From the NCBI RefSeq assembly GCF_036507355.1, contig NZ_AP027877.1: DNA of 64,000 bases. One strand, given 5' to 3'. Position 1 is the stretch's first letter, and each line of letters begins with the position of its first letter. Made by a program: the position numbers and the translations under genes. The notes beneath the pieces were generated by a model. That model searched no databases. It was not told where the DNA came from and saw only the letters and a program-made list of their open reading frames with translations. Source of the stretch: Escherichia coli. Lineage in GTDB: Bacteria > Pseudomonadota > Gammaproteobacteria > Enterobacterales > Enterobacteriaceae. Shown here one piece after another: positions 6,863 through 53,276 of this stretch.

Positions 6863-6892
6863 TGATCCTACCCACGTAATATGGACACAGGC

Positions 6893-7759: not shown

Positions 7760-8064
7760 TTCAGGCGCTTCGCGAAGTATGTCGCGGCCTTTTGGAGGAT
7801 AGCCAGCTCTTCATCCCGTTCTGCCAGCTGGCGTTTGAGACGTGCAATCTCGGTAGACATCTCCAGTTCACGTTCAGAAGACGTCTGCTGATTTTGCTGT
7901 TTACTGCGCCAGTTGTAGAGCTGTGATTCATACAGGCTGAGTTCACGGGCTGCGGCAGTAACACCGATGCGTTCAGCAAGCTTCAGGGCTTCACTGCGAA
8001 ATTCAGGCGAATGCTGTTTACGGGGTTTTTTACTGGTTGATACTGTTTTTGTCATGTGAGTCAC
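7756..8064 (-). CDS. insE: IS3 transposase OrfA
   Basis: 102-aa HTH protein [34 protein letters not shown]... Confidence 0.9.
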
Positions 8065-8120
8065 CTCTGACTGAGAGTTTACTCACTTAGCCGCGTGTCC
8101 ACTATTGCTGGGTAAGATCA

Positions 8121-10302: not shown

Positions 10303-10431
10303 TTCAGCCTGGCGGTGTAATGCACCGCCAACTTGAAATATTTTTTATGAGAAAAATTATGAGATATGACAATGTTGGTGATGCTGCCAACTTACTGATT
10401 TAGTGTATGATGGTGTTTTTGAGGTGCTCCA

Positions 10432-10707
10432 GTGGCTTCTGTTTCTATCAGCTGTCCCTCCTGTTCAGCTACTGACGGGGTGGTGCGTAACGGCAAAAGC
10501 ACCGCCGGACATCAGCGCTATCTCTGCTCTCACTGCCGTAAAACATGGCAACTGCAGTTCACTTACACCGCTTCTCAACCCGGTACGCACCAGAAAATCA
10601 TTGATATGGCCATGAATGGCGTTGGATGCCGGGCAACAGCCCGCATTATGGGCATTGGCCTCAACACGATTTTACGTCACTTAAAAAACTCAGGCCGCAG
10701 TCGGTAA
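10432..10707 (+). CDS. insA: IS1 InsA
   Basis: 91-aa [23 protein letters not shown]... zinc-finger/HTH protein; A6C frameshift motif near 10683. Confidence 0.9.
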
Positions 10708-11129
10708 CCTCGCGCATACAGCCGGGCAGTGACGTCATCGTCTGCGCGGAAATGGACGAACAGTGGGGCTATGTCGGGGCTAAATCGCGCCAGCGCTGGC
10801 TGTTTTACGCGTATGACAGGCTCCGGAAGACGGTTGTTGCGCACGTATTCGGTGAACGCACGATGGCGACGCTGGGGCGTCTTATGAGCCTGCTGTCACC
10901 CTTTGACGTGGTGATATGGATGACGGATGGCTGGCCGCTGTATGAATCCCGCCTGAAGGGAAAGCTGCACGTAATCAGCAAGCGATATACGCAGCGAATT
11001 GAGCGGCATAACCTGAATCTGAGGCAGCACCTGGCACGGCTGGGACGGAAGTCGCTGTCGTTCTCAAAATCGGTGGAGCTGCATGACAAAGTCATCGGGC
11101 ATTATCTGAACATAAAACACTATCAATAA
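10626..11129 (+). CDS. insB: IS1 InsB (expressed as the InsAB' frameshift fusion)
   Basis: 167-aa ORF overlapping insA in the -1 frame. Confidence 0.85.
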
Positions 11130-11322
11130 GTTGGAGTCATTACCGACAATGTTAAACCATGTCCATTTTGTGGTTGTCCATCAGTAACGGTGAAAGCCAT
11201 TTCAGGATATTACCGAGCGAAGTGTAACGGATGCGAATCCCGAACCGGTTATGGTGGAAGTGAAAAAGAAGCACTCGAAAGATGGAATAAACGAACCACT
11301 GGAAATAATAATGGAGGTGTTC

Positions 11323-11532
11323 ATGTATAAAATTACCGCCACTATTGAAAAGGAAGGTGGCACTCCTACTAACTGGACAAGATATTCAAAATCTAAACTA
11401 ACGAAATCAGAATGCGAAAAAATGCTCTCAGGTAAAAAAGAAGCAGGCGTTTCCAGAGAGCAGAAAGTAAAACTGATAAATTTTAATTGCGAGAAACTTC
11501 AGTCCTCGAGAATTGCATTGTATTCAAATTAA
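11323..11532 (+). CDS. ydaC: Rac prophage small protein YdaC
   Basis: 69 aa MYKITATIEKEGGTPTNWTRYSKSKL...; conserved position between ralR and xis. Confidence 0.7.
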   Translation: MYKITATIEKEGGTPTNWTRYSKSKLTKSECEKMLSGKKEAGVSREQKVKLINFNCEKLQSSRIALYSN

Positions 11533-11610
11533 AACTTCATAGCTGATTATTAATAATCAACATCGGGCGTCAATTTCAGTCTAACATTGGCGCCTGCCAG
11601 AGGTGATGCG

Positions 11611-11826
11611 ATGGCACAAGTAATCTTTAATGAAGAGTGGATGGTTGAATACGGCCTGATGCTTCGCACTGGTCTGGGGGCCAGACAAATTGAAGCATAC
11701 CGCCAGAACTGTTGGGTGGAGGGCTTCCACTTCAAACGAGTATCTCCTTTAGGTAAGCCAGACAGCAAACGAGGGATTATCTGGTACAACTATCCAAAGA
11801 TAAATCAGTTTATCAAAGACTCATGA
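11611..11826 (+). CDS. xisR: prophage excisionase
   Basis: small protein [33 protein letters not shown]... immediately upstream of the integrase. Confidence 0.7.
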
Positions 11827-11827
11827 T

Positions 11828-13063
11828 ATGTCTAAATTACCAACAGGTGTCGAGATTAGAGGTAGATACATTCGCATCTGGTTCATGTTTCGAGGAAAAC
11901 GATGTCGGGAAACATTAAAAGGCTGGGAGATTACAAACAGTAATATTAAAAAGGCCGGAAATTTAAGAGCGCTGATAGTTCATGAAATAAACTCCGGTGA
12001 ATTTGAGTATTTAAGACGTTTTCCCCAGTCCAGCACTGGGGCAAAAATGGTGACAACGAGAGTCATAAAAACGTTCGGAGAGCTTTGTGATATCTGGACA
12101 AAAATTAAAGAGACAGAGTTAACAACAAACACAATGAAGAAAACGAAATCACAATTAAAAACACTCAGAATAATAATTTGTGAAAGTACCCCGATATCAC
12201 ATATTCGTTATAGCGATATCTTAAACTACCGGAATGAACTGCTGCATGGAGAAACGCTTTACCTGGATAATCCAAGATCCAACAAAAAAGGAAGAACCGT
12301 GCGCACAGTTGATAACTATATCGCCCTGCTCTGTTCGCTGTTGCGTTTTGCGTATCAGTCGGGATTTATATCAACCAAACCATTTGAAGGAGTAAAAAAA
12401 TTACAGCGAAACAGAATAAAGCCTGATCCGTTATCTAAAACAGAATTCAATGCATTAATGGAAAGTGAAAAAGGACAGAGCCAGAACTTGTGGAAATTTG
12501 CCGTTTACTCAGGACTTCGTCACGGGGAACTGGCAGCTCTGGCGTGGGAGGATGTGGATCTCGAAAAGGGAATAGTGAATGTCAGAAGAAACCTGACGAT
12601 ACTTGATATGTTCGGTCCCCCAAAAACAAATGCCGGGATCCGAACAGTAACACTACTGCAGCCTGCTCTTGAAGCACTGAAGGAGCAATACAAACTGACC
12701 GGGCATCATCGCAAAAGCGAAATCACCTTTTATCATCGGGAGTACGGCAGAACCGAAAAGCAAAAACTGCATTTTGTTTTCATGCCCAGGGTGTGTAACG
12801 GAAAACAAAAACCTTATTACTCGGTAAGCAGTTTGGGGGCAAGGTGGAATGCAGCAGTAAAACGTGCTGGTATTCGCCGCCGTAATCCGTACCATACGCG
12901 GCATACTTTTGCCTGCTGGCTGTTGACGGCAGGAGCGAACCCGGCATTTATAGCCAGCCAAATGGGGCATGAAACTGCGCAGATGGTGTATGAAATTTAC
13001 GGTATGTGGATTGATGACATGAACGACGAACAGATAGCCATGTTGAATGCGCGGTTATCGTAG
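11828..13063 (+). CDS. intR: tyrosine-type prophage integrase
   Basis: 411 aa, lambda Int-like, C-terminal RHTFA...Y catalytic region; next to the att core. Confidence 0.9.
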   Translation: MSKLPTGVEIRGRYIRIWFMFRGKRCRETLKGWEITNSNIKKAGNLRALIVHEINSGEFEYLRRFPQSSTGAKMVTTRVIKTFGELCDIWTKIKETELTTNTMKKTKSQLKTLRIIICESTPISHIRYSDILNYRNELLHGETLYLDNPRSNKKGRTVRTVDNYIALLCSLLRFAYQSGFISTKPFEGVKKLQRNRIKPDPLSKTEFNALMESEKGQSQNLWKFAVYSGLRHGELAALAWEDVDLEKGIVNVRRNLTILDMFGPPKTNAGIRTVTLLQPALEALKEQYKLTGHHRKSEITFYHREYGRTEKQKLHFVFMPRVCNGKQKPYYSVSSLGARWNAAVKRAGIRRRNPYHTRHTFACWLLTAGANPAFIASQMGHETAQMVYEIYGMWIDDMNDEQIAMLNARLS

Positions 13064-13071
13064 TTGCAAAG

Positions 13072-13090
13072 TTTGCCCCCAATTTGCCCC
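13072..13090 (+). repeat. two direct TTTGCCCC repeats between the int stop and the att core (putative arm-type sites)
   Basis: gtttgcccccaatttgcccca; same motif as at 2111-2160. Confidence 0.5.
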
Positions 13091-13114
13091 ATTTAGTACC
13101 AGGGAACTGAAATA

Positions 13115-14050
13115 ATGCAAGAAAATCAACAAATTACAAAGAAAGAACAATACAACCTGAACAAATTACAAAAACGCCTGCGTCGTAACGTGGGCGAAGC
13201 CATTGCTGACTTCAATATGATTGAAGAAGGCGATCGCATCATGGTTTGCCTCTCCGGGGGTAAAGACAGCTATACCATGCTGGAGATTCTGCGCAATTTG
13301 CAGCAAAGCGCGCCAATCAATTTTTCGCTGGTGGCTGTTAACCTCGATCAAAAGCAACCGGGCTTCCCGGAACACGTTCTGCCCGAGTATCTTGAAAAGC
13401 TGGGCGTTGAGTACAAGATTGTTGAAGAGAACACTTACGGTATCGTGAAAGAGAAGATTCCAGAGGGCAAAACCACTTGCTCACTGTGTTCTCGGCTACG
13501 TCGCGGTATCCTTTATCGCACCGCAACGGAACTGGGGGCGACGAAGATCGCGCTGGGTCACCATCGTGACGATATCCTGCAAACGCTGTTCTTAAATATG
13601 TTCTACGGCGGCAAGATGAAAGGTATGCCTCCGAAATTGATGAGCGATGATGGCAAACATATCGTGATTCGTCCGCTGGCCTACTGCCGCGAGAAAGATA
13701 TTCAGCGCTTTGCCGATGCAAAAGCGTTCCCGATTATTCCGTGCAACCTGTGCGGTTCACAGCCTAACCTGCAACGTCAGGTGATTGCTGACATGTTGCG
13801 TGACTGGGATAAACGTTATCCGGGGCGTATCGAGACGATGTTCAGCGCGATGCAGAATGTGGTGCCATCGCATCTGTGCGATACCAACCTGTTCGATTTT
13901 AAAGGCATTACCCACGGTTCTGAAGTGGTTAACGGGGGTGATCTGGCGTTTGATCGCGAAGAGATCCCACTACAACCGGCGGGCTGGCAGCCAGAAGAAG
14001 ATGAAAATCAGTTGGATGAGTTACGGCTGAATGTGGTTGAAGTGAAATAA
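13115..14050 (+). CDS. ttcA: tRNA 2-thiocytidine biosynthesis protein TtcA
   Basis: 311 aa with SGGKDS PP-loop and CxxC motifs; 5' end contains the att core. Confidence 0.9.
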
Positions 14051-18559: not shown

Positions 18560-19084
18560 CTACGCCTGCGCCGTTTTACGTAGTGCGACGTAACACGCCC
18601 CGCTGCCGCCATGATGCGGTAGCGCGGTGCAATATGCCTGAACATCATCAAATTCGGTCAGCCAGCGCGCCACATAGCTGCGGACAATATTGGCATGCGA
18701 TTTATCATCCCGCCCTTTACCATGAATAATCAGCACGTTACGCAAACCATCCGCCAGGGCTTGTTGAATAAAACTGAACACCATTTTGCGGCACTCTTCC
18801 ACCGGCTGGCGCAAAAGATTCAGGCTCGCCTGTTGCGGATATTTACCACTGCGCAGCTTATCCAGCACCCCATGTTGCAACCCTTCCCGCCGAAACTCCA
18901 GCGGCTGACTTAGTGGGATGATGTCGAGAAATCCGGTGGTGAGGAAATTATCAAGCTGCAGCGTGTCGATACGCTGCGGCGCACGTTGGTTACGCGTTGG
19001 ATGCCAGTGGACATCGGTAGCACGTTTCAGCGGCTGGACATCTTCCATGGCGTCAAGAAACAGCGATTTGTCGTCAAGGTTCAT
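18560..19084 (-). CDS. smrA: Smr-domain DNA endonuclease SmrA
   Basis: 174-aa ORF MNLDDKSLFLDAMEDVQPL... with Smr domain region (LIIHGKGRDD). Confidence 0.7.
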   Translation of the reverse strand: MNLDDKSLFLDAMEDVQPLKRATDVHWHPTRNQRAPQRIDTLQLDNFLTTGFLDIIPLSQPLEFRREGLQHGVLDKLRSGKYPQQASLNLLRQPVEECRKMVFSFIQQALADGLRNVLIIHGKGRDDKSHANIVRSYVARWLTEFDDVQAYCTALPHHGGSGACYVALRKTAQA

Positions 19085-19278
19085 GTAACCTCCTATGCAC
19101 CTTCACACGTCGTGATTCAGACGGGTTAATTGTTCATACTTACTGCATCGTTCCCTTCACAGATTGAAACAATACTCTACTTCATACCTGTGAGTATCTG
19201 CGCAGGCGGGGCATTTTATACTAGCCTGTTAGCAGTATCGAACAGTTTAGCCCGAGTTTAATTCAGCACAGGCTCCGA

Positions 19279-20792
19279 TCAGGATGATTTATTCATAGCA
19301 GGAACCAACAAAAATGCGATAAATAACAGACCACTGATTAGCAGAAAGGTATCCGAAAATGCCATAGTTTGCGCCTCCCTCAGCATCAATTGACTCAATA
19401 ATTTGGTTGAAGCCAGTATTTCCGATGTCTGGTCACTTCCACTGCGATTAAAAAATAAAGCACTTCTGGAAATGAAGTCATTCACCGTATGGGGAACAGA
19501 AACCATTTTTTCACCCATTCTCGAAAAATGAAAATTAGTTCGATTATTGAGAATAGAGCCACACAGGGCAATACCGATCGCGCCCCCAAGATTACGTGTT
19601 AAATTAAATACACCAGAGGCTAACTTCAGCCGTTCTTTTGGAATTCCCCCCAGCGTTAATGTTACGATGGGGGCCATCGCAAACTGCTGCGAAATCCCTC
19701 TAATTGCCTGTGGAAACAGTAACTCCTGCCATCCCCATTCGTGGGTTATAGGGGTAAAAAGATACATTGAAAACACAAATCCGCCCAGCCCCGCCATCAA
19801 CAGCCATCGCAGATTTATTTTTTTACTTAACCAGAAGTAAAAGGGAACAGAAAATAACTGGAAAATACCTGTTGTGCAAACGGCAAAACCTATCTCTTCG
19901 GCATTTAATCCGCGAATCTGCCCCAAAAACACAGGTATTAAATATACAGTAGAGAATATCCCAACTCCTCCAGAAAAAGAAAAAAACATCCCAGAGTGAA
20001 ATTTTTATCCTTAAAAGCATGAAGATCCATTATCGGATTGGATATTGTAAGTGTACGCGCAGCAAATAAAATAAAACTCACCAATGCCAGAACTGATGTC
20101 AGCAAAATAGTATTATCATCCAGCCATCCCCAGCGCGCTCCTTCTTCAAGGGTATATTCCAGACATCCCAGTGTCATGGCCAACAGGATAATACTCGGAT
20201 AATCAGCAACTTTCAGTAAAGAGAGATCAGGTTTATCAAAATTAACCAGAAAAGGAATACTCAAAACTAAATATATGCCAGGTAATATATTGATATAAAA
20301 TAGCCATCGCCAGTCGAGGTTATCAGTGATCCAGCCCCCCAGAGTTGGCCCTAGCGTCGGTGACAGTGAGGCCAGCGCACTGACTACCGCAGCAGCCAAC
20401 CCCAACTCTTTACCCTGGTAATAAATAAACGCCGTCGTGAAAACTAAAGGGATCATGGATGCGCCAGCAGCTCCCTGTAAAGCACGAAACAAAATCATGA
20501 TCTGAATATTCCATGCAAGTCCACACGCGATACTCATTAAAGTAAATATTCCCGCGGATAGAGTAAAAAGCCAACGAGTGGAAAATACCCGTGACAGCCA
20601 CCCAGAGAGCGGAATAACAATAATCTCAGCAATTAAATAGCTGGTCTGAAGCCAGGCCATTTCGTCTTTACCTGCGGACAGACCACCACCTATTTCATTT
20701 AGGGATGACGATACAATTTGAATATCAAGCTGAGCAATAAATAATCCCATACACATACTGGCGAAAGCAATATGTTTACGCATAGACATCAT
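19279..20792 (-). pseudogene. EmrB-like MFS efflux transporter, frameshifted in a homopolymer run
   Basis: two overlapping ORFs (284 aa and 236 aa) that together form one 14-TM-type MFS protein; frame break at the T/A run near 19977-19984. Confidence 0.7.
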
Positions 20793-21820
20793 CTCTCATC
20801 AACACTGACGGTGACGGACAGTCCCGGGCGAAGAAGTTGCTTTAATTCCTTTGCGTCGTCAAATGCAATCCGTACCGGGACACGCTGAACAATTTTGGTG
20901 AAATTGCCAGTGGCATTTTCTATCGGAATCAAGCTGAAACTGGCTCCTGTCGCTGGGGAAAGGCTTTCAATGTGACCGTGAAACACTTCCCCTTTGAGAA
21001 TATCAGCACGGATCTCAGCCTTCATTCCTGGCTTCATTCCCGCTATTTGGTTTTCTTTATAATTTGCATCAACCCACAACTCACTGACTGGTACTAGTGA
21101 AACTAACGATGTGCCGCCTTCCACCCAACTGCCTGTATGGGCGCTGCGGTTTGCGACAATGCCATCAATCGGCGCACGAACAAGGGTATATTCCAGATCC
21201 AGTAGTGCCTGAGTCAAAGCGGCCTGAACTTCTTCGATACTCGCACGTACGTTTTCTTCCTGAGCAGATAAAACTGCCAGCCGTTGCTTCTCCACCAGGA
21301 AATCGTTCGCGGCTTTGCGCTCCTTTGCTGCGACCTGCTGGTAGTCAAACCTGGCGTTATCAATAATTTGTTGCGATATTGCCGCTGATTGTGCGAGTTT
21401 TTCATAACGTTCAGTATCTCGCAGGCGCTTTTGCTCCTCATGTTTTACTGCCTGCCATGTTTCACTGGCACTTTGAATTATCGACTGCTGCATCGCAATA
21501 GTGGCTTGAATGCTTTCGAGATTGGCTTTGCTACTTTTTATTTTTGCCTCAAGCCTGGCGACATTTGCACGATAATCCCGATCATCGAGACGCAGGATAA
21601 TATCGCCTTTTTTTACGCTCTGATTATCGCGCACCTCTATAGCAGAAATATAACCAGAAACTTTACTTGCCACCGTGGTGATATTACCACCAATGTAAGC
21701 ATCATCCGTCGTCTGTATAAATCTTCCTTTGCTTACCCACCAGATAAAAAAGACAACGCCAGTCAAAAGAATACCGATCGCTACCACCCCAATAAGCTGT
21801 TTTTTAGAAATTATCATCAC
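20789..21820 (-). CDS. HlyD/EmrA-family membrane fusion protein
   Basis: 343 aa, N-terminal TM helix, long coiled-coil, C-terminal beta domain; start overlaps the MFS gene by 4 nt. Confidence 0.75.
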   Translation of the reverse strand: MMIISKKQLIGVVAIGILLTGVVFFIWWVSKGRFIQTTDDAYIGGNITTVASKVSGYISAIEVRDNQSVKKGDIILRLDDRDYRANVARLEAKIKSSKANLESIQATIAMQQSIIQSASETWQAVKHEEQKRLRDTERYEKLAQSAAISQQIIDNARFDYQQVAAKERKAANDFLVEKQRLAVLSAQEENVRASIEEVQAALTQALLDLEYTLVRAPIDGIVANRSAHTGSWVEGGTSLVSLVPVSELWVDANYKENQIAGMKPGMKAEIRADILKGEVFHGHIESLSPATGASFSLIPIENATGNFTKIVQRVPVRIAFDDAKELKQLLRPGLSVTVSVDER

Positions 21821-21913
21821 TCTTTACACCGTATATATCCGGAAACTTGCATACGTCATATTTAAAATTTAACATGGCTTATTTGATGATTTCTGACAAA
21901 ATACCTACTGTAA

Positions 21914-22729
21914 ATGACAATTACACTGCAACCCAAAGCATCACCAGGGCATCACATTATCGGACTGGATTCGGAACATCTGAATGGAGGTACAGTTCCC
22001 TGGCATAAACATCTCTATGCCCAGTTGCTTTACCCGGCTGAAGGAGTCGTTCGTGTATGGGCTGGAGAAAGCGTCTGGCTAGTCCATGCCAGCAGCGCGC
22101 TTTGGCTGCCCCCACAAATGCCGCATAAGTTTGTTGCGACAGGCAACGTACTTTTAAAAACCGTACTGGTTTCAGAAGCGGAAAGTGAAACGCTGGGAAC
22201 AGTTTGCTTCATGACGGGTATTTCACCCCTGTTAAGGGAATTACTAATTGCAATTAACCAACTTCCACCGTCGCAAAGTACCACAGATAAACAACAGTTA
22301 CGTTTTTCAGCCCTCGAGACACTGATACTTCAGGAAATAAAAATGGGGGTGAAAATGTCACTTGAACTCCCTTGGCCAAATGATGAGCGGCTACAGCAGC
22401 TTTGTGAGAATTTGCTAAACAACCAAGGGTATCTGCCAACACTGGATAATCTAGCGGATAAAATTAACGTCAGTAGCCGTACACTCATGCGCTTATTTGT
22501 TAAAGAGACGGGATTAACATTTCGCCACTGGGTTCAGCAAATGCACGTTATATCTGCAGTGACGCTTCTTGATGATGGATATTCGTTGACCAAAATTGCC
22601 CATCGTCTGGGCTATGCCTCAGCTGAATCGTTCGGCAATATGTTTAAGCGTCGAACGGGTTACTCGCCCGGTAAATTTACTCGTCGATTAACGATGCATG
22701 ATTATGCAATCACAAGACAAATGATTTAA
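21914..22729 (+). CDS. AraC-family transcriptional regulator
   Basis: 271 aa with cupin-like N-domain and C-terminal double HTH; divergent from the efflux genes. Confidence 0.75.
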   Translation: MTITLQPKASPGHHIIGLDSEHLNGGTVPWHKHLYAQLLYPAEGVVRVWAGESVWLVHASSALWLPPQMPHKFVATGNVLLKTVLVSEAESETLGTVCFMTGISPLLRELLIAINQLPPSQSTTDKQQLRFSALETLILQEIKMGVKMSLELPWPNDERLQQLCENLLNNQGYLPTLDNLADKINVSSRTLMRLFVKETGLTFRHWVQQMHVISAVTLLDDGYSLTKIAHRLGYASAESFGNMFKRRTGYSPGKFTRRLTMHDYAITRQMI

Positions 22730-22799
22730 CTTATATTTTCGTGAAATCTGTCACTGAAGAAAATTGGCAACGGATGGGTAAAACCGTTATAACACTGTC

Positions 22800-22893
22800 A
22801 CCGGTCACCAGGACCCCAGGCCGGATTTAAGACGAGGATGCACTGCTGTGTGTACTGTAGAGTCTGGCGGATGTCGACAGGCTCTATTTTTTT
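22800..22893 (+). ncRNA. mcaS: McaS-like small RNA
   Basis: accggtcaccaggaccccaggccggatttaagacgaggatgcactgctgtgtgtactgtagagtctggcggatgtcgacaggctctattttttt resembles remembered McaS; strand assignment tentative. Confidence 0.55.
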
Positions 22894-23272
22894 ATTCATT
22901 TTTTAGCTCTGTAAATAACCACATTCTCGCCGGGATTGGGGAATGAGTGACGAGATCAGTGGTGTCTGGCGGCTATCACGCCACAGAATCAAATAACAGA
23001 TAGCCTACGGTAAAATTTCGCTGACTGGAATTATCCCACCCTCGATCCATGTGATGGCTTGCCCTCATTTCTTCAGGCAGAAAAATCAAAAAATCGCTTT
23101 ATGCTATCAAACTGCGACAAACCAGACGCGAAACTGGGTACTTACTATTCGTTAGTCTTGCCCTATCCACTTATCTTTTTGGTGGTATGGCTGCTGATGT
23201 TGCTGGCGTGGTATCTTGTCGGTCTGCCGATAGGTCCGGGTATTTACCCACGTTTGTCTTAAGAGAGAACGG

Positions 23273-27469: not shown

Positions 27470-29083
27470 TCAATGCTTCACAATATACATAGTCCGACTG
27501 TACGCCACATCTTCAGGGTTATTAATGGGATAACCTTTCAGCCACGGTTTGATTAATCGTCCATTGGTATATTGATAAATTGGTGCAATCGGTGCTTGCT
27601 CCATGAGGATTTTTTCTGCCGCGTTGTAATCGGCATTACGCGCTTTAACGGTATTTTCCGTCGATGCCTGGGCCAGAACTTTGTCGTATGCCGGATTGTT
27701 AAAGCGTGAAATATTTCCTGAATGCGTTGACGTTAATAATGTCAGGAAAGTGGAGGGTTCATTATAATCCCCCACCCATGAGGCGCGGATAACATCAAAA
27801 TTGCCGGTGTTACGGCTATCGATATAGGTTTTCCATTCCTGATTTTGCAATTTAACATCTACGCCAAGGTTCTTTTTCCACATCGATGCTACAGCAATCG
27901 CAATTTTTTGATGGTTTTCTGAAGTGTTATACAAAAGCGTCAGCTTCAGCGGTTTTTGCGGACCATAACCAGCTGCGCTCAACAAAGTTTTTGCCTGCGC
28001 ATTCAGTTCTTCCTGACTCATTTGTTCAAACGGCGAAGGTTCCGGCGTAAATCCGGCGGTAACATCTGGTGTAAAATGCCACGCTGGCTTTTCGCCCGTC
28101 CCTAATACTTTTTCGGTCATCAGGCGGCGATCTATCGTCATACTTAATGCCAGACGAACGCGCTGATCTGCCGTCGGCCCTTTTTGCGTGTTAAACGCAT
28201 AATAATAGGTCCCGAGCTGCGGCGGCGTATAAACCTGCCCCGGAATATCCTTCAACAGCTTCTGATACATATTTTTCGGGAAGGATTCGGTGATATCAAT
28301 ATCCCCCGCGAGGTAACGCTTAGTGGCTGCGGATTCCTGATTAATTGGCAGGAAGGTCACTTTTTGCAGTACCGTTTTGGCGTTATCCCAATAATGGGTA
28401 TTCGGTACCACGACCAGTTTTTCATTGACTACGCGCTCTTTAAGAACATAAGCGCCATTGCCGATCAGATTTCCGGGTTTCGTCCACTCTTTACCGCTTT
28501 CTACGTTGGCTTTTTGCACCGGGAAGAAGGCAAAGTTAGCGGTTAAATTCACAAACCACGGCAACGGTTTATCAAGCTGAATTTTCAAAGTATGGGCATC
28601 AACTGCGGTGACGCCAAGCTGGTCAGGCGTAGCTTTACCATCAATAATCGCCTGTGCGTTGTTGATTCCCGCCAGCGCGGCAAACCATGCAAATGGCGAT
28701 AGCGTTTTCGGGTCCACCAGACGCTGCCAGCTGTAGACAAAATCTTGCGCCGTTACCGGTGTGCCATCCGCCCATTTTGCGTTATCGCGCAGGGTAAAAG
28801 TCCAGATACGGTTGTCATTACTTTTCCACTGAGTCGCAACGCCGGGGACAATCTCCCCTTTCTCGTTCTGATTCACCAGTCCTTCAAACAGATCGCGAAT
28901 GACCTGAATCTCTGGCAGGCCCACGGCTTTAGCGGGATCCAGCGACGCAGGCTCATCTTTAATGTGGCGCACCAGCTCCTGCTTCTCTGCCAGTACTGTG
29001 CCGCTCGGAACTTCTGCAGCATACGAAAGAGAAATGCTGCTGACCAACAGCGCACAACACGTGACTGAAACAGAGTGCTTCAT
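27470..29083 (-). CDS. mppA: periplasmic murein tripeptide-binding protein MppA
   Basis: 537 aa with signal peptide; OppA-like family 5 substrate-binding protein; tracked ORF extends to 29104. Confidence 0.9.
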   Translation of the reverse strand: MKHSVSVTCCALLVSSISLSYAAEVPSGTVLAEKQELVRHIKDEPASLDPAKAVGLPEIQVIRDLFEGLVNQNEKGEIVPGVATQWKSNDNRIWTFTLRDNAKWADGTPVTAQDFVYSWQRLVDPKTLSPFAWFAALAGINNAQAIIDGKATPDQLGVTAVDAHTLKIQLDKPLPWFVNLTANFAFFPVQKANVESGKEWTKPGNLIGNGAYVLKERVVNEKLVVVPNTHYWDNAKTVLQKVTFLPINQESAATKRYLAGDIDITESFPKNMYQKLLKDIPGQVYTPPQLGTYYYAFNTQKGPTADQRVRLALSMTIDRRLMTEKVLGTGEKPAWHFTPDVTAGFTPEPSPFEQMSQEELNAQAKTLLSAAGYGPQKPLKLTLLYNTSENHQKIAIAVASMWKKNLGVDVKLQNQEWKTYIDSRNTGNFDVIRASWVGDYNEPSTFLTLLTSTHSGNISRFNNPAYDKVLAQASTENTVKARNADYNAAEKILMEQAPIAPIYQYTNGRLIKPWLKGYPINNPEDVAYSRTMYIVKH

Positions 29084-29419: not shown

Positions 29420-30319
29420 CTAAACAGCACCTTTATACTTCAGCCTATCTATAAATAATGAGAATGCCGAGCCAGCATGTCGACGGTGTGGATAGTACAG
29501 GTGATAACCGGGTAAATCTGGTGTGAATTTATCCAAAACACGTATCAGTTTTTTTTCTTTAATAGCCCGCTCAACCTGATCATAAGGTAGATACGCCAAT
29601 CCATGCCCATCAATTGCAGCATCAATGATCAGGTCTATCGTATTCAGTAAAAGCTGACCTTCCATGCGAACACGAACTTCACGTCCACCGCGTATTAATC
29701 TCCAGCGATTTGCTGTACCCGATGTGGGAAGATACAAATTAACTGCCTGATGATCTATTAATTGTGACACTGACGTTGGAACACTTCGGCGGGAAAAATA
29801 ATCCGGTGAGCCGACAATAGCCATTGGTATATCTGGCCCGATTCGAATGGCGATCATATCTTTATCCATCTCCCCACCCAGACGGACGCCTGCATCAAAA
29901 CGCTCAGAAACGACATCAGTCAAACCATAATCAATGATAAGCTGAATATCAATTTCAGGGTGTGATTTCAGGAATGTGCGCATGGCTGGTAACAATATCG
30001 TTTTTGCTGCATGTTCTACAGTAGTAATACGTATTGTCCCGGATGGGCGGTTCTGCAGATCGCTCAGGGATGCCAGGGCAGAATCTATGTCATGCAGCAT
30101 AGGGCCAAGAACAGACAAAAGATGCTCGCCCGCTTCAGTGGGTACAACACTGCGCGTGGTTCGCGTCAGAAGCCGCAATCCCAATCGTTCTTCTATACGG
30201 CGCACTATCTGGCTTAAAGCTGACTGCGCCATGCTCAGGCGGGCTGCTGCTCGAGTGAAGCTACGCTCCTCTGCAACGACGACAAACGCCATCAGATCAG
30301 CGATCTCTTCACGCTTCAT
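29420..30319 (-). CDS. pgrR: LysR-family regulator PgrR (YcjZ)
   Basis: 299 aa with N-terminal LysR HTH (FVVVAEERSFTRAAARLSMAQSALSQ). Confidence 0.75.
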   Translation of the reverse strand: MKREEIADLMAFVVVAEERSFTRAAARLSMAQSALSQIVRRIEERLGLRLLTRTTRSVVPTEAGEHLLSVLGPMLHDIDSALASLSDLQNRPSGTIRITTVEHAAKTILLPAMRTFLKSHPEIDIQLIIDYGLTDVVSERFDAGVRLGGEMDKDMIAIRIGPDIPMAIVGSPDYFSRRSVPTSVSQLIDHQAVNLYLPTSGTANRWRLIRGGREVRVRMEGQLLLNTIDLIIDAAIDGHGLAYLPYDQVERAIKEKKLIRVLDKFTPDLPGYHLYYPHRRHAGSAFSLFIDRLKYKGAV

Positions 30320-30481
30320 TCAGTATCTCCATACAATCTATTAATCATTTAAATGATAGGTCTAATCATGATTTTGGGTCTAATCAACTTAATGATCAAT
30401 ATCTATAGTGATATCACCAACCGTTGAATCGCCACGGGTTTAACAGACACCTCAGAGTCATTTAAGATGGCTTAAAGAGAG

Positions 30482-30822: not shown

Positions 30823-31635
30823 GTGCTGGATGTTCATCCCAGTGGTTTTTACGCCTGGCTTCAGCAGCCGCATTCACAACGCCATCAGGCAGACCTGAGG
30901 CTGACAGGGCAGATTAAACAGTTCTGGCTGGAATCGGGATGCGTCTATGGTTATCGCAAAATCCATCTGGATCTGCGGGACAGCGGGCAACAGTGCGGAG
31001 TGAACAGAGTCTGGCGACTGATGAAACGTGTCGGGATAAAGGCTCAGGTCGGATACCGGAGCCCGCGGGCACGTAAAGGCGAGGCCAGTATCGTGTCGCC
31101 CAACAGGCTCCAGCGACAGTTCAATCCGGATGCTCCGGATAAGCGTTGGGTAACGGACATAACCTACATCAGGACCCACGAAGGCTGGCTGTATCTTGCC
31201 GTGGTTGTTGATCTGTTCTCACGCAAAATTATCGGCTGGTCCATGCAATCCCGGATGACAAAGGACATTGTCCTGAACGCACTGCTGATGGCTGTATGGC
31301 GCCGTAATCCCCAAAAACAGGTGCTGGTTCATTCGGATCAGGGCAGTCAGTACACAAGCCATGAGTGGCAGTCGTTCCTGAAATCACACGGCCTGGATGG
31401 CAGCATGAGCCGTCGCGGTAACTGCCATGATAATGCGGTTGCAGAAAGCTTTTTCCAGTTGTTGAAACGCGAACGGATAAAGAAAAAGATCTACGGAACG
31501 CGGGAAGAAGCCCGCAGCGATATTTTTGATTACATCGAAATGTTTTATAACAGTAAGCGTCGGCATGGTTCCAGCGATCAGATGTCACCGACAGAATATG
31601 AAAACCAGTATTATCAACGGCTCGGAAGTGTCTAG
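30823..31635 (+). CDS. IS3-family transposase OrfB (DDE integrase)
   Basis: 270 aa with DDE residues in WVTDITY...HSDQGSQYTS...CHDNAVAESFF context. Confidence 0.85.
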   Translation: MLDVHPSGFYAWLQQPHSQRHQADLRLTGQIKQFWLESGCVYGYRKIHLDLRDSGQQCGVNRVWRLMKRVGIKAQVGYRSPRARKGEASIVSPNRLQRQFNPDAPDKRWVTDITYIRTHEGWLYLAVVVDLFSRKIIGWSMQSRMTKDIVLNALLMAVWRRNPQKQVLVHSDQGSQYTSHEWQSFLKSHGLDGSMSRRGNCHDNAVAESFFQLLKRERIKKKIYGTREEARSDIFDYIEMFYNSKRRHGSSDQMSPTEYENQYYQRLGSV

Positions 31636-31653
31636 ATTATCCGTGGCGATTCA

Positions 31654-31864
31654 TACAATTCTTCGCCCTGCCTGGCTGACGGATGAAGATATTATTGATT
31701 ATGAGCTTACCTCACGCAATGAACCATTCAAAGGTACGATCGTATCACGTAAGAGTGTCGCAGCATTAATTACAGATATCATCGATAAACCTGAGAAACA
31801 CATTGGTGAGAATATAGGCATCAATCAACCCGGGACTGATGGCGATAAGCCATTCTTCATGTAA
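31654..31864 (+). pseudogene. ycjY: C-terminal remnant of an upstream gene truncated by the IS (ycjY-like)
   Basis: open frame continuing from the IS end to a stop at 31864 (…KPFFM); only ~100 bp lies between pgrR and the IS, so the 5' part is missing. Confidence 0.4.
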
Positions 31865-32154: not shown

Positions 32155-32857
32155 ATGACCGTAACCCGCCCACGCGCCGAACGCGGCGCATTTCCGCCCG
32201 GAACAGAACATTACGGACGTTCATTATTGGGCGCGCCGTTAATCTGGTTTCCGGCCCCTGCAGCCAGTCGCGAAAGTGGTTTGATTCTGGCTGGCACTCA
32301 CGGTGATGAAAACTCTTCGGTCGTCACGCTCTCCTGTGCTCTGCGGACTTTGACACCTTCTTTGCGCCGCCATCATGTGGTGCTGTGTGTGAATCCTGAC
32401 GGCTGCTAGCTGGGGTTACGGGCCAATGCTAATGGTGTGGATTTAAACAGAAACTTTCCGGCGGCGAACTGGAAGGAAGGTGAAACGGTTTATCGCTGGA
32501 ACAGCGCCGCTGAAGAACGTGATGTCGTTTTACTGACAGGTGGCAAACCTGGCTCCGAACCTGAAACCCAGGCGCTGTGCCAGCTTATACACCGCATTCA
32601 ACCTGCCTGGGTGGTCTCATTCCACGATCCACTGGCCTGTATTGAAGATCCCAGACACAGCGAATTAGGCGAATGGCTGGCTCAGGCGTTTGAATTGCCT
32701 CTGGTAACCAGCGTCGGTTATGAAACGCCTGGCTCTTTCGGCAGTTGGTGTGCAGATCTGAACTTGCATTGCATCACCGCAGAGTTTCCGCCCATCTCCT
32801 CCGACGAAGCCAGCGAAAAATATCTCTTTGCGATGGCAAACTTGCTGCGCTGGCATC

Positions 32858-32883
<26 letters not shown>
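32155..32883 (+). pseudogene. mpaA: murein peptide amidase MpaA with in-frame amber codon
   Basis: zinc carboxypeptidase-like frame MTVTRPRAERGAFPPG... interrupted by TAG at 32407-32409 (…VNPDGC-stop-LGLRANANGVDLNRNFP) then continuing in frame. Confidence 0.75.
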
Positions 32884-33833
<950 letters not shown>

Positions 33834-41946: not shown

Positions 41947-44802
41947 CTATACGTTTTGCCAGAAGGCCGATAACCGCGACCAGGTCAGGGAGTCCGTTGA
42001 AGGCAATAGTAATTGCGCCCCGGTTAAGCCCGCGCCGATCCCCACCGAGCGCATACCGCTGGCGTTAATGGCGTCAATGCCCGCCTGCGCATCTTCAATG
42101 CCGATACATGCCTGCGGCGGCACGCCCAGCCCGGCACAAGCAGCGAGAAAGATTTCCGGATCCGGTTTCGAGTTTTTAAGTTGGGAAGCATCCGCGCAGA
42201 AGGTGAAAAACTCGCGCAGCTCCAGCGCCGCTAAAATCGTCGGCGCATTCAGGGAGACGGAAGCCAGCCCTACCGGAATCTGCTGTGCACGGAGCTCTGC
42301 CAGCAAATTGCGAATACCGGGCAGCACAGCATTAACCGTCAGCTCGCGCAGTGAGTGGACGTAGAGCAGATTTTTGCGATACGCCAGTTGCGCCCGCTCC
42401 TGCGAGTTAAAGTCGCCCTCTTTGCCCCCGTATTGCAGAATGCGCCGCAGAGACTCATCGCGGCTAATCCCTTTTAGGGATTCGTTAAACTGCGCATCAA
42501 TGCTGATGCCAATTTCAGCGGCAATCTGCTGCCACGCCTGGAAATGCAGATGCGTGGTAGCGGTCCCATTGAAGGGCAAAATAAAATCAACCAAACAGAA
42601 AACAGATTCTTCAGCCACGGATATAAGCTGCCCGTTCAAACGCAGTGAAACGGGCGCAGAAGTTCGAATCGCAATACGCTGCGCGTCGAGCGTGACCTGT
42701 AATTCGCAGCCCTGCCAGAACAGAGGGAAAGACAACTGTTGCCACTGCTCCGGTAACGCCGGATTGAGATGTAATTCACCGTCACGCACGCTCACCCCGG
42801 CAAAACCCTGAATTGCCCCCAGCCAGATAGCGCCAGTTGCGGCAGCGTGGATACCATCATCACAACTATGCGGATCAGCACCAAGATCGATTTCAGTCCC
42901 CTCGCGCCAGAACTGATAACTTTGGGTCAGCAGGCCACAGCGTGCGGCAACAATGCCGTGGATTGCTTTACTTAATGACGAGTCGTGAATAGTGCGCGGT
43001 TCATAAAATTGCAGATTGGCAAGACACGATACCGCTGAGAACTGCTCCGGCAGCATGTAATTGAGCATCACCACATCAGCTTGTTTGAGGATCTGCATCT
43101 CGTTCACTTCTGCGCGTGAATAATCCAGCAGAATGGTTTGCTTCCCCGCCGCCGCTTTGTATTTAGCCAGATTAATCGCCGGCTTAGCCATAAACGAATC
43201 ATCCTGCGGCAAAACGCCATCGGGCTGCGTTTCTGGCATCCATAGCTCTTTGAGGAACATTTCGGCCCGATGGATAAACGCATCGTCGCTACAGCCGAAC
43301 TGGCGGGCAATATTCAGCGCCTGTTGAACGTTGTAGCGGGCCATATAGCTGGTGTATGCATTATTATTGACATGTTCGGTATATTCGTCTGGTCCAATAA
43401 CATCATGAATTTCCAGACGATCGTTAACTCTCACCGCGCGGCTAATCCAGAACTTTGCCGTCTCCAGAAGTAGCGCCATGCCTTCATGAGCAATGAAACT
43501 TTCATCCCCCGTTGTCTGCCAGTATTGAATAACCGCCCAGGCGATATCGGCGACCAGATGATGTTCCGCCTGCGCCGAGGCCACTTTTTGCCGCAGCCCG
43601 GTGCGAATGTTAATGGCGGCAAATTCCGGCGTCTCTTCTTCGCCGCTGCGCGCGCTTTCCCACGGAAATAGCGCGCCCTGCCAGCCATTGCGTCGCGCTT
43701 TCTCCTGCGCGCCAGGCAAGTTGTGCCAGCAATAACGCAGTAAACTTCGGGCAACCGTCGGATCGCTAAACAGATGAAACGGTAGCAAAAATACTTCTGT
43801 ATCCCAGAAAACGTGGCCTTTGTAGCCTTCGCCGGTTAAGCCTTTTGCCGCAATACTGCTGCGCTCGTCGTGGGCGGGCGTCATGATGCGCAGATGATAA
43901 AGTGCATAATCTAACGCTTGCTGATCGTGCGCATCGCCGCCGTTTACCGTGATACGACGTTTCTGCCACAACTGACGCCAGTTTTCTGTTGATGCTGCAA
44001 GAAGTTGGTCGTAACTCTGCTGCGCACACATTTCAAGCTGGCGAAGCGACGCACTGCCCCACTCGTCTAAAGCAGCTTGCCTGTCATCCCGCCAGTCGAT
44101 CCACACCCGTTTTTGCAACGTCACTGTCTCGCCTGCATGAAGCTGCGCACTGGTATGTTGCAGCAAACGGCGCTCTTTGGCGGTATAGCATTGCTGCACA
44201 TCACCGCTCACCTTACAGCAACAGCTGATGGCCACATCACTGCGTCCATCCTGGGTGGTGTAGATCCCCTGCATCAGATGCTGACCAAACACCCGCACCT
44301 GGGTTTCGTCGAGATGCTGGCGACCGTGGTTGGTTTGCGTGGCGTCGATACCTGTTGAAATCAGCACTGACGCGACGGCGTCCAGTGGCGTAATAGTGAT
44401 TTCCAGCGCAATGAGCGGCAGTTGGTCTGCCGAAACAAAGCGACGGCTGGCGATGGTGTAACCTGCGCCGTTGCTGGTACGCCAGACAACGTTGCGGCGT
44501 AATTCGCCACTGGCAAAGTCAAGCTCACGCTGCCAGGCTTCGTGGGATAACGAGAAAACCTCACCATTTATGGCAATCTCCATCCCCAAGATATCAGGCA
44601 GGTTCACCAGTTCGTTGATTTCACCTTTACCCGCCCGATGATACAGCCCCGCCAGATACATTCCTCGCGTCTGGCGCGTGTAATCTTCTTCATGGCTGGC
44701 GCGAAGCCCAAGATAGCCGTTCCCCTGCGCCATCAGCGATGCATACTTGTTCAGGGTATGCTGGCTGAAATGGGGTTCTGATAACGTTACTGGCCTGGTC
44801 AT
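41947..44802 (-). CDS. ycjT: single 951-aa ORF combining a GH65 kojibiose phosphorylase-like region (YcjT) with a HAD beta-phosphoglucomutase-like region (YcjU)
   Basis: continuous frame; C-terminal ~200 aa ([18 protein letters not shown]...SAFWQNV) is HAD/beta-PGM-like but has no DxDG motif upstream in any frame. Confidence 0.7.
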
Positions 44803-45674
44803 AATTCCACACGCGTCCCTGTTTCTGCGGATTGATATAACGCCGCCACCAGTTGCTGGATGATGTACCCCTGCTCGGCGTCGGCTATCATCACGGGCTT
44901 GCCCTGTACGTGATTGATAAAGGCTTCCATGCTGCGCAAATGGCGGTTGTCGTCTGCCATTTCCCGTTGCATCAGCGTCATTAACTCACCGTTGTTATCG
45001 GTGTAGATATGTGCTGGAAACAGCGTCGCACCGGCTTTATCACCACAAAAGCTGACGTTCATAATCGACTGTTCGCGGATGTTGAGTGCAAATGACGTTT
45101 CCAGCCACAGAATGCCGATGTCGATCAGCGGGCCACCACCCTGCAGTTCTTTATTGGTAAAGACGCCCCAGCCGGGAACGCCGCAGCGACGCAGGGCGCG
45201 GGCGGTGGTAACGTAAATCTCTCCCAAAACGCCGTTGGTCACCTGTTCGCGCAGCTGTTGCGTATCGAGCGCAAAACGATGGTGAAAGTCGTAGGCCAGC
45301 ACCTTGCCCTGTTTGCGCGCGATATCGCACATTTCCCGCGCCTGTTCTGGCGTCATGGCGGGCGGTTTTTCGCACATCACATGGCAGCCCGCTTCCAGTG
45401 CCATCAGGGTATGTTCGTAATGAAAACGGTTAGGTGAGCAGACGCTAACCACATCAGGTTTCACCGCCAGCAGCATGGCCTGCGGATCGTCCCACACGGA
45501 TGCATTACCGTATTTATCTGCCAGCGCCTGCGCCTGGGAAAGGCAGCTGTCACAGACAGCCACCAGTTCCAGATCGTTGCGGGTGCAGTAGTACGAAGCA
45601 TGAACCTTATCCGCCACCTGGCCTGCGCCTATTATCGCGACCCGCAGCGGAGAGCTTGTCATTGCACTTTTCAC
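44799..45674 (-). CDS. ycjS: Gfo/Idh/MocA-family oxidoreductase YcjS
   Basis: 291 aa with N-terminal Rossmann motif [11 protein letters not shown]. Confidence 0.75.
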
Positions 45675-49303: not shown

Positions 49304-50596
49304 TTAGTGCTGTTCGATCAGTTCATCCAGCTTTTTCTGGCTCGCTTGTAGCGTGGTAGAGAGATCGGCTTTACCCACAGTGACGTTATGCACCATGGAG
49401 CTCACCACCCCAGAACCCGTCACATCGCCCATGCGGGTAAAGTTTTTATCCCCTACTGCGCCAAAGACCTGAATATTCGGCAGTTCACCGATTAACTGAT
49501 TTGGCAGTTCACCCAGCGCCTTAATAACGTCGTTGTCTTTCCAGGTGGCAGTAGTGACAACCGCTTTGTTCACCGGCAGCGCCGCGCCTGGCGACATCAT
49601 CACCCAGTCGGCAATGTTGTCTGCCTGCTCCATAAAGGTGACAAATTTTTCTGCTGCTTCCGTTTCTTCGGTCTTTTGCCCGGCGGTAATGGTCAGCGAG
49701 GTCAACATGCCGTAGACTGCAGCGTTTTTCTCCGTTGGCACGACGAAACCGACGTTTTTCGGGTCGCCTTCTTTAATCACAGCCGGAAGGATATAGGTGG
49801 AGTAAATCGCCATCGGCGCGGTGCCGTTCATAAAGGCGTCTTTCACTTCCATGATGTCGTTAGAACCCGGCATGGTGTTGGCAGCAAGGTCGCGGTAATA
49901 GGTCAGCGCCTGCATCATCTCTGGTGTATCAAGAGTGATTTTGCCTTCGGCGTTAAAGACGTTGGCCTGGTTGGATAACGCAAACTGGGAGAAGGATTGT
50001 TCCGTCAGCACGCTTTCTGCCGTAGGCAGCGCAATACCGTATTTTTTATTCGCCGGGTCATTCAGTTTCTGTGCAACGTCCAGCAGCTGTTGCCAGTTTT
50101 TCGGCTCCTCCAGCCCCGCTTTTGCCAGCACATCTTTGCGATACCAGATGCCGCCAATCCAGGCGCTGACAGGTACACCGGTCCATGCGCTACCATCTTC
50201 GGTACGCACAATACGCAGTACGCCATCGTAAAACGCGCCTTCACCAACGTTGCTGATGACCGTGGCAACCGCTTTGCGATCGATAAGCTGCTCTTTATCC
50301 ATAACTTTGGCGTAGTCATGGCTGGTTTCGATCACTTCCGGCAGCGAGCCGCTACGTGAAAGGGTGATGACTTTAGTGTTATAAGCGTCTTCTTCCACGG
50401 GCACTTGTTTAACGGTGATACCTGGGTTTTCTTTTTCAAAACGGGCAATCAATTTGCTGATAACTGCCTGACGCTCCTGCTCCACCGAAGAATGCATAAA
50501 TTCGATGGATACATGGGTTTTATTTTCTTCTTTACAGCCTGAAATCAGGGCGCAGGAAACCAGTGCTGATAACAGCACGATTTTTGATTTAATCAT
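49304..50596 (-). CDS. ycjN: periplasmic sugar-binding protein YcjN
   Basis: 430 aa with lipoprotein-type signal (LISGC). Confidence 0.8.
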   Translation of the reverse strand: MIKSKIVLLSALVSCALISGCKEENKTHVSIEFMHSSVEQERQAVISKLIARFEKENPGITVKQVPVEEDAYNTKVITLSRSGSLPEVIETSHDYAKVMDKEQLIDRKAVATVISNVGEGAFYDGVLRIVRTEDGSAWTGVPVSAWIGGIWYRKDVLAKAGLEEPKNWQQLLDVAQKLNDPANKKYGIALPTAESVLTEQSFSQFALSNQANVFNAEGKITLDTPEMMQALTYYRDLAANTMPGSNDIMEVKDAFMNGTAPMAIYSTYILPAVIKEGDPKNVGFVVPTEKNAAVYGMLTSLTITAGQKTEETEAAEKFVTFMEQADNIADWVMMSPGAALPVNKAVVTTATWKDNDVIKALGELPNQLIGELPNIQVFGAVGDKNFTRMGDVTGSGVVSSMVHNVTVGKADLSTTLQASQKKLDELIEQH

Positions 50597-50972
50597 GAGA
50601 TGTTCCTTTTTATTTAATCCACATAACCTGCCAGGGGCGCAGCGTTATTTCATTACCCAATATATCAACTTCACTAATCAGATCCCGACCATGCAGATCA
50701 GTAATATTTACATGCTGAATATTTTCACTGACATTAAACAATCCAGTCAGACAATTACCATCAGCGTTACTTCTTTGAATACGCATTACGGATGAATTAA
50801 CCGTATCAATGGTAAAATTATTATCCGGATGAAACTCGTTATGGCTGCGACGAAGTGTAATTAAACGCGACAACTCATGATATACCGCATGCCTTAATGT
50901 AGCTTCATCGTTCAGTTGGTGATGCTGCCAACTTACTGATTTAGTGTATGATGGTGTTTTTGAGGTGCTCCA

Positions 50973-51248
50973 GTGGCTTCTGTTTCTATCAGCTGTCCCT
51001 CCTGTTCAGCTACTGACGGGGTGGTGCGTAACGGCAAAAGCACCGCCGGACATCAGCGCTATCTCTGCTCTCACTGCCGTAAAACATGGCAACTGCAGTT
51101 CACTTACACCGCTTCTCAACCCGGTACGCACCAGAAAATCATTGATATGGCCATGAATGGCGTTGGATGCCGGGCAACAGCCCGCATTATGGGCATTGGC
51201 CTCAACACGATTTTACGTCACTTAAAAAACTCAGGCCGCAGTCGGTAA
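50973..51248 (+). CDS. insA: IS1 InsA
   Basis: identical to the insA at 10432. Confidence 0.9.
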
Positions 51249-51670
51249 CCTCGCGCATACAGCCGGGCAGTGACGTCATCGTCTGCGCGGAAATGGACGA
51301 ACAGTGGGGCTATGTCGGGGCTAAATCGCGCCAGCGCTGGCTGTTTTACGCGTATGACAGGCTCCGGAAGACGGTTGTTGCGCACGTATTCGGTGAACGC
51401 ACGATGGCGACGCTGGGGCGTCTTATGAGCCTGCTGTCACCCTTTGACGTGGTGATATGGATGACGGATGGCTGGCCGCTGTATGAATCCCGCCTGAAGG
51501 GAAAGCTGCACGTAATCAGCAAGCGATATACGCAGCGAATTGAGCGGCATAACCTGAATCTGAGGCAGCACCTGGCACGGCTGGGACGGAAGTCGCTGTC
51601 GTTCTCAAAATCGGTGGAGCTGCATGACAAAGTCATCGGGCATTATCTGAACATAAAACACTATCAATAA
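51167..51670 (+). CDS. insB: IS1 InsB
   Basis: identical to the insB at 10626. Confidence 0.85.
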
Positions 51671-53276
51671 GTTGGAGTCATTACCCGTTCAGTTCTCGTG
51701 TTATCTCTTCACTGTGATATTTTTTACGGTTAATCGCACGGTTATATCCGAGTTTTTCGACACCTGCGTAATCATTACGCGAGCCCAGAATACTTTGAAT
51801 ATATATCGCTGGCACACCGGGGAAACTTAACAAAATCGCATGGGCAAGGATAAACCTGGCGCAACGTTCTTCATCGCTACTCTCGCGGCGGCTTAACGCA
51901 TCCATATAGGTGACATTTATTTCATAGGGACTGCGCGTACCGTCGGGATTATTTTTCCAGTTTACTAATGCACCTTCCTGCTGTAATGCCTCGATCAGCG
52001 CTAATATTTCGCTTTCTGGTAACAAGCCCCGCAGTGGGTTCAGCCCGATGCCATCGTGAGAGGCGAGGAAGTTAAACCAGGTCGTTTTACCGGAGGGCAA
52101 GCTCAGACTTTGCGCCCACTGGCACAGCGCCTCGACGTTCTGTTTTTGCACCGCATGTAACACCAGCGGCGGCAGCGAGAACTGGTACACCATATGCGCT
52201 TCGTCATCGCCTTCGCCAAAGTAAGCAATGTTATCTTTATGCGGAACATTCGTCTCAGTAATAATCACCGTACCTGGCGCGATGTCATCAATAATCGACC
52301 GTAACAGTTTGATAATCAGATGTGTTTTTTCCAGATGGATGCAGCTTGTTCCCGGCTCTTTCCACATAAAGCCAACGGCATCCAGACGGACATATTCTGC
52401 GCCCTTTTCCAGGTAGCACAGCAATACATCCACCATCGCCAGCAACACTTCAGGGCTACGGTAATTGAGGTCAATTTGATCGTCGCTAAAGGTGGTCCAT
52501 AAATGGCGCGTGGAATTATCATCCATTTGAAACGGCGTTAATAGCGGTAACGCACGCGGACGGGTGACGGCACTGAGATCGGTTTTCGGATCAACCGCAA
52601 TAAAGAAATCTTTAAAACCCGGAAGCTGTTGCAAATAGTTTTTAAACCATTCACTTTTTGCCGACATATGGTTGCAGACAAAATCAAACATTAAATGACT
52701 GCATTCACCGAGCTGCTGAATATCCTGCCACTCCCCCGCTTCACTGGCGACCTGATGATAATCAATTACCGAAAATCCATCATCAGATGACCATGGATAA
52801 AAAGGTAATAAATGAACATGTGAAAAAATGCTTTGCAGCCATTGGTGGTAAAACTGATTAAATGTGGGTAGTGGTTTTAAATCATTACTGTGAAATTGAT
52901 CGGCATAGGTAATTAACACGACGTCACTTTCATCCCAGTGTTTTTTACGTCGCTGTGTAATTAATCGTTTCGCACTCTCAAGACGCGTTACAAGTTTCTG
53001 TAAATGAGTTGCGGTAAATGTTCCACCGTAGATTTCGCCCAGGTAATCCGTAATTTTCTGTTTCATGTTGCCTTTCCGTGGTAGCGGTCCCATGAAACGA
53101 GAGACTACTCCGCAGAAAATAAACTGTCAATTGAGCACAAGGGTTTTAGTCACGCAGGAAATCATTTTTTACCAGGGAAAAAGCGTATTTGTGAGCTGAC
53201 GCAAATAATCTATAGGGATGTAAATAAGGTGTGACAGAAAAAAACGGCGCATAAGCGCCGCTCATGGTGAATTCTT

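Follow-up and report, generated by a model that had tools for sequence, protein, structure and literature searches.

An amber stop at codon 85 of mpaA, most probably an ordinary pseudogenisation, in an IS-rich lineage of Escherichia coli

MpaA of Escherichia coli is described by the family model NF007897, belongs to Peptidase_M14 and is represented by the PDB entries 5HXD and 4AXV. Its role in the murein tripeptide pathway and the re-use of the tripeptide by Mpl have been reported (PMC9928106). The gene is the last one of the PgrR-repressed operon ycjY-ymjD-ymjC-mpaA (PMC5934670; PMC9928106). In the 64-kb stretch of E. coli DNA analysed here (the window), the mpaA locus agrees with described E. 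coli MpaA in its sequence and in its position between ymjC and ycjG, and it is also close to pgrR and mppA; mpl itself lies outside the window. In contrast to the described gene, the reading frame is stopped at codon 85, ycjY and ymjC have been lost upstream, and an Asp130Gly exchange is present.

Two further comparisons concern the stop and its surroundings. Like the ambers of supE44 laboratory strains, the stop is a CAG-to-TAG change that would be fully reversible by a glutamine-inserting suppressor. In contrast to those strains, the window is derived from a natural lineage closest to phylogroup E genomes and not from a K-12 derivative; the nearest RefSeq complete genomes, O157:H7 (O157 in the following) and O55:H7, are only 98% identical over 18 kb. 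The four IS copies, the several deletions and the three private nonsense mutations within 64 kb, as well as the chromosome size of 4.64 Mb (4,643,937 bp) in the same lineage, resemble the decay of Shigella and enteroinvasive E. coli (EIEC) genomes, although the same-lineage assemblies are labelled E. coli and not Shigella in GenBank. The IS copies and the lesion load fit a host-restricted, Shigella- or EIEC-like genome decay.

The mpaA frame comprises 242 codons, and its sole interruption is the in-frame TAG at codon 85. A preliminary description of this DNA had stated that the frame continues across the TAG, which is what we find. The translation around the stop reads HHVVLCVNPDGC, stop, LGLRANANGVDLNRNFP (in the shorter form VLCVNPDGC, stop, LGLRANANGVDLNRNFP). 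The features of the locus are, in window coordinates:
32155..32883, plus strand: mpaA pseudogene (murein tripeptide amidase), from the NF007897 match, the PDB 5HXD match and the identity to O157
32407..32409, plus strand: amber codon, TAG for CAG (Gln85), C253T, from the reading frame and the O157 comparison
32155..32409, plus strand: N-terminal ORF of 84 aa, 149.6 bits, with HGDE (HxxE) at residues 49-52 kept
32437..32883, plus strand: C-terminal ORF of 148 aa with a GTG start at codon 95, partial NF007897 match, without HxxE
32543, plus strand: A389G (Asp130Gly); Vibrio MpaA conserves this residue (TGDK)

The closest allele found is that of O157, from which the window differs at 3 of 801 bases (99.6% identity of mpaA at the DNA level). 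One of these differences, C253T, converts the CAG of Gln85 in O157 into the TAG of the window; the Gln at this position is conserved in Vibrio MpaA, too. A375T is synonymous. The third difference, Asp130Gly, lies downstream of the stop and is a weak hint of relaxed constraint, but relaxed selection on mpaA cannot be demonstrated from two further changes, one of which is synonymous.

For the assignment we used the NCBIfam equivalog NF007897 with its curated cut-off of 157 bits. If codon 85 is repaired to Gln, MpaA scores 476.6 bits over model positions 1-236, and the solved E. coli structure 5HXD ('Protein MpaA') is matched at E=1e-165. The 84-residue fragment stays under the cut-off of NF007897, and a Pfam search with it gave no match. 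The 148-residue ORF reaches 285.5 bits, but only over model positions 95-236; its exact sequence is named 'hypothetical protein VEE46_23530 [Escherichia coli]' in GenBank. Because neither real product matches NF007897 over its full length above the cut-off, the locus is mpaA by descent and, as judged from its predicted products, encodes no MpaA protein.

The position of the stop relative to the sequence motifs points in the same direction. HGDE (residues 49-52) precedes it, whereas NRN (98-100), FHDP (156-159) and TAEF (208-211) follow. From general knowledge of M14 peptidases we take FHDP and TAEF to contain the second zinc histidine and the catalytic glutamate of MpaA, respectively, and NRN to be substrate-binding. 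HxxE and these two presumed residues are not found together on one polypeptide here. Since the stop parts HxxE from the presumed zinc histidine and catalytic glutamate, neither fragment should be able to hydrolyse L-Ala-gamma-D-Glu-meso-Dap.

With a 73-base probe centred on the TAG position, mpaA was found in 5,414 of the 5,426 RefSeq complete E. coli genomes. The TAG probes covered two local haplotypes, the window's own and the K-12-type. Comparison with other strains had been suggested in the preliminary description, and it supports a change away from the common codon: O157 has CAG, no exact (100%) match of the window's TAG 73-mer exists among the 5,426 genomes, and the K-12-type haplotype with TAG likewise has no exact match in the RefSeq complete E. 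coli genomes. Therefore, CAG is the ancestral and almost universal state. Four public loci (L005, L006, L007 and L011) share 99.97% identity with the window over 8-11 kb and have all three mpaA changes; L024 and L025, which were reached via the C-terminal fragment, proved to be the contigs of L005 and L007. The exact 84-residue product is found on 35 public contigs, although some of these entries are partial proteins cut by contig ends. Several further proteins are specific to the lineage, namely a YcjT-PgmB fusion, YcjV fragments, a truncated SmrA and the C-terminal MpaA fragment. They are labelled Escherichia coli in GenBank, and each occurs on only 3-14 public contigs, among which is the 4,643,937-bp chromosome. 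Since independent, 99.97%-identical assemblies carry the same changes, the TAG is a real allele that is fixed in a lineage.

Apart from an IS element and a deletion upstream, the context of mpaA is kept and is collinear with both O157 and K-12. The neighbouring features are:
27470..29083, minus strand: mppA, murein tripeptide binding protein, intact, 1,614 nt, 99.8% identical to O157
29420..30319, minus strand: pgrR, intact gene (900 nt) for the repressor that acts on the ycjY-ymjD-ymjC-mpaA operon; its product differs from O157 in one residue
30425..31653, plus strand: IS3-family element of 1,229 bp with 38-nt imperfect inverted ends and two transpos_IS3 ORFs
31653..31864, plus strand: 3' remnant of ymjC (SDR oxidoreductase), nt 428-639 only, from the O157 comparison
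32858..33823, minus strand: ycjG, L-Ala-D/L-Glu epimerase, the step after MpaA, intact

Homology to O157 ends at 30425 and restarts at 31653, the outer boundaries of the IS3-family element, whose inverted repeats lie at 30425-30462 and 31616-31653 and whose ORFs both match the transpos_IS3 model. The element stands where O157 has ycjY1, ycjY2 and nt 1-427 of ymjC; neither ycjY1 nor ycjY2 has a match anywhere in the 64-kb window. Its 3-nt flanks are unlike each other, so a target duplication is lacking; this is what an IS-associated deletion would leave, and the deletion upstream of mpaA amounts to 2.3 kb. Because the element and the deletion removed upstream genes of the operon, the normal transcription of mpaA has probably been lost or impaired as well. 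A sigma-70 consensus scan of the plus strand between the IS element and mpaA gave no match, which is weak evidence. The destroyed operon had been missing from the preliminary description. That description had, however, regarded mppA as intact, and rightly so: MppA has 537 codons, differs from O157 in one residue and is found as the exact protein on at least 1,000 public contigs.

We propose that mpaA is an ordinary dead gene, inactivated by one C-to-T transition from Gln85 to amber in a gene-losing lineage, and we assign a probability of about 0.9 to this reading. The transition would have occurred in a single E. coli lineage that loses genes by IS insertions, deletions and point mutations. 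Translation would end after 84 residues, so that HxxE is kept and NRN is lost together with the presumed zinc histidine and catalytic glutamate; the downstream 148-codon ORF would have to work without HxxE, and neither piece would be active. The IS3-family element and the 2.3-kb deletion would additionally lower mpaA expression by taking out the upstream operon genes. Simple pseudogenisation had been one of two possibilities named in the preliminary description, and it is favoured by the CAG in O157, by the reproducibility of the allele, by the varied inactivating lesions found nearby in the window and by the many unrelated mpaA lesions of other E. coli. The same description had expected an effect on murein tripeptide breakdown with uptake by mppA kept, and we come to the same expectation. 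With mppA intact, the catabolic branch would be removed: re-use of the MppA-imported tripeptide by the Mpl ligase would stay, whereas its breakdown for Dap, carbon and nitrogen would be lost. Consequently, the lineage is predicted to be unable to use murein tripeptide as a source of these three, while import and recycling continue. The stop calls for no special decoding. Taken alone it matters little, adding to the signs of reductive evolution in this IS-rich E. coli lineage. Annotators would do best to mark mpaA as a pseudogene and to leave its two fragment ORFs out of the gene set.

Between ompN and puuP, the window runs collinear with O157 and departs from it at a number of lesions. Besides those at mpaA, it includes:
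18560-18562, minus strand: smrA codon 175, AAG to TAG (Lys175), removing the last 13 of 187 residues
41517..41519, minus strand: ycjV codon 139, CAA to TAA (Gln139), a non-amber nonsense change
50915-51686: IS1 in ycjM with a 9-bp target duplication (O157 21392-21400 aligns on both sides)

The smrA codon is the other TAG nonsense change that the preliminary description had counted in the window, and it is real. Neither the smrA TAG 73-mer nor the ycjV TAA 73-mer has an exact match in the RefSeq complete genomes; L005-L007, of the same lineage, share the split of ycjV. The 174-residue smrA product keeps the name SmrA in PGAP, and the smrA TAG may leave this gene active.

Several other explanations of the mpaA stop have to be weighed against an ordinary dead gene. 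It is hardly credible that the TAG is a sequencing or assembly error in a strain that truly has CAG. Such an error would have to concern only one base, and some public contigs (L008-L010) break exactly at mpaA nt 252 or 254; but the TAG is present in six or more independent read sets or assemblies of the lineage, among them NCBI GCA_905398585.1 and Logan ERR3330519, SRR17480487 and SRR32181686. Resequencing to CAG, which the preliminary description had raised against the stop, is thus contradicted by the independent assemblies of the lineage. The three contigs end at 10252 (L008), 8961 (L009) and 8443 (L010), one base before the variable site, and these breaks are best read as an assembly-graph fork from mixed alleles in the sample rather than as an IS junction. 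The preliminary description had also considered, as a speculation, that the host carries an amber suppressor. A tRNA of the supE/glnV type would read UAG85 as Gln, and both mpaA and smrA would be functional. This is very improbable, even though two of the three private nonsense mutations of the window are TAG and a supE-type suppressor would presumably restore the exact wild-type residue at codon 85. The third mutation, in ycjV, is a TAA, which a glnV/supE-type amber suppressor is not expected to read. Moreover, the expected TAG share of single-base nonsense changes, computed from the codon usage of 39 window genes, is 38% if all substitutions are equally frequent, 46% if transitions are favoured fourfold and 58% if only transitions are counted, which makes two of three unremarkable. 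The observed two TAG, one TAA and no TGA show no TAG excess over this expectation, and therefore no amber suppressor is needed. Suppression would also extend the products of four intact window genes that terminate in TAG, and the mpaA operon has been separately wrecked by the IS3-family element and the deletion. A few genes from mpaA, O157 has a ycjN pseudogene produced by CAG to TAG at codon 210, although no suppressor is known from O157; this illustrates how common such amber pseudogenes are among ordinary strains. Within the 64-kb window there are no tRNA genes. In E. coli, termination at UAG is comparatively leaky when the next base is C, and Gln is what near-cognate decoding would insert; by this route, a trace of wild-type MpaA is conceivable. 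An active split enzyme, formed by joining of the two fragments after re-initiation at GTG95, is as far-fetched as a sequencing error. The 148-codon ORF does begin only 27 nt past the stop, but inspection of the sequence reveals nothing like a Shine-Dalgarno sequence ahead of GTG95, residues 85-94 would be absent, and we know of no precedent for a split M14 peptidase.

A different kind of alternative accepts that the gene is dead and holds that its loss was not neutral, being either selected or mutationally favoured at a hot spot of nt 252-257 around CCAGCTGG. We regard this as unlikely, though clearly less so than the explanations above. It would be in line with the finding that C253T occurs on three mpaA haplotypes, namely in the window lineage, in K-12-like phylogroup A (L002, L004) and in the common B1 haplotype (L003), which is shared by hundreds of natural isolates, so that identical flanks need not mean one clone. 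Furthermore, +T after nt 255 is found on at least three backgrounds, including the RefSeq genomes UTAK-14, UTAK-4 and 99E2750, in all of which PGAP marks mpaA as frameshifted, and delA254, delT257 and C252A (Cys84 to TGA) fall into the same stretch. Altogether, about half of the distinct lesions in the detectable stretch of about 44 nt lie within 7 nt. However, the look-ups of exact products detect only lesions at about nt 239-282 of mpaA and are blind outside this range. A replicate look-up with the commonest C-terminal fragment returned C252A as well as a junction near nt 260, +AC at nt 263, +AT at nt 277 and, on at least two backgrounds, delG266, and randomly read members of the fragment clusters have lesions near codons 73, 124 and 142. 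In addition, given the depth of the public collection, a C-to-T change is expected to recur at any site, and other CAGCTG sites in the window are without indels. If loss were selected, inactivation might help, for example, an invasive or host-restricted life via altered handling of Dap peptides by shutting off murein-tripeptide catabolism; a literature search found no paper tying mpaA loss to Shigella or invasive E. coli. A sequence-specific variant, aberrant very-short-patch repair at two overlapping CCAGC quasi-Dcm half-sites, is pure speculation. In part, the pattern comes from the way in which the look-ups sample lesions; what is left is a mild excess at nt 252-257 and the recurrent +T. 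Independent of its cause, the presence of many unrelated lesions across E. coli means that mpaA is dispensable and has been lost repeatedly.

The lesions of the other, unrelated E. coli (loci L002-L004, L014-L023, L027 and L029-L038) are varied and pile up at nt 252-257, with window positions 32404-32411 corresponding to nt 250-257. The site is CAGCTG, the core of the 8-nt palindrome, and MG1655 has CAGTTG there. The 120-residue product P0013 may result from a stop at codon 121 or from the end of a contig. Several special origins of these lesions were considered and given up. A hot spot exclusive to the hexamer was weakened by the lesions reaching out to nt 277 in the replicate look-up. An effect on CAGCTG in general, such as restriction-modification or a basecalling error at a methylated motif, does not agree with the other CAGCTG sites, where variation is by substitution only, some sites being lost and some gained, and without indels. 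In UTAK-14, the 40 kb around the +T allele are otherwise intact. A laboratory origin (K-12 derivatives, Cas9, base editing) was rejected since L002 and L004 are separated from MG1655 by 4-9 SNPs scattered over 13 kb and since MG1655 has CAGTTG at the site. An IS insertion in mpaA of Shigella sonnei was discarded, too, because the many partial S. sonnei proteins in the fragment clusters, which had raised the suspicion, read through Gln85 and are contig-end fragments.

Additional changes were observed elsewhere in the window. By a short deletion, ycjT (kojibiose phosphorylase) and pgmB (beta-phosphoglucomutase) are fused in frame (41947-44802, minus strand); the fusion ORF has 951 codons, and its exact protein is found on only four public contigs, all labelled E. 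coli. The adjacent ycjS (44799-45674, minus strand) has an in-frame deletion of about 180 bp and 291 codons compared to 351 in O157; the deletion apparently occurred between short direct repeats, as the alignments overlap at 45100-45117. At 19094-23110, abgA, abgB, abgR and the greater part of abgT have given way to a module of about 3.6 kb with genes for an AraC-type regulator, an HlyD-like adaptor and an MFS pump, the last of which is distributed over two overlapping ORFs (19279-19989 and 19938-20792), probably due to a frameshift. An 11-kb Rac-like prophage remnant (2007-13122) occupies the ttcA site and contains an integrase, recT, a truncated recE, trkG and tail-fibre genes. An IS3 copy (ORFs 6893-8064) and an IS1 interrupt it; the second IS1 copy of the window, besides the one in ycjM, starts at 10374. 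Beside the remnant, ttcA (13115-14050) is intact. Finally, ycjN (49304-50596, minus strand) and ompN (74-1207, plus strand) are intact in the window and pseudogenes in the O157 reference, where ompN is frameshifted.
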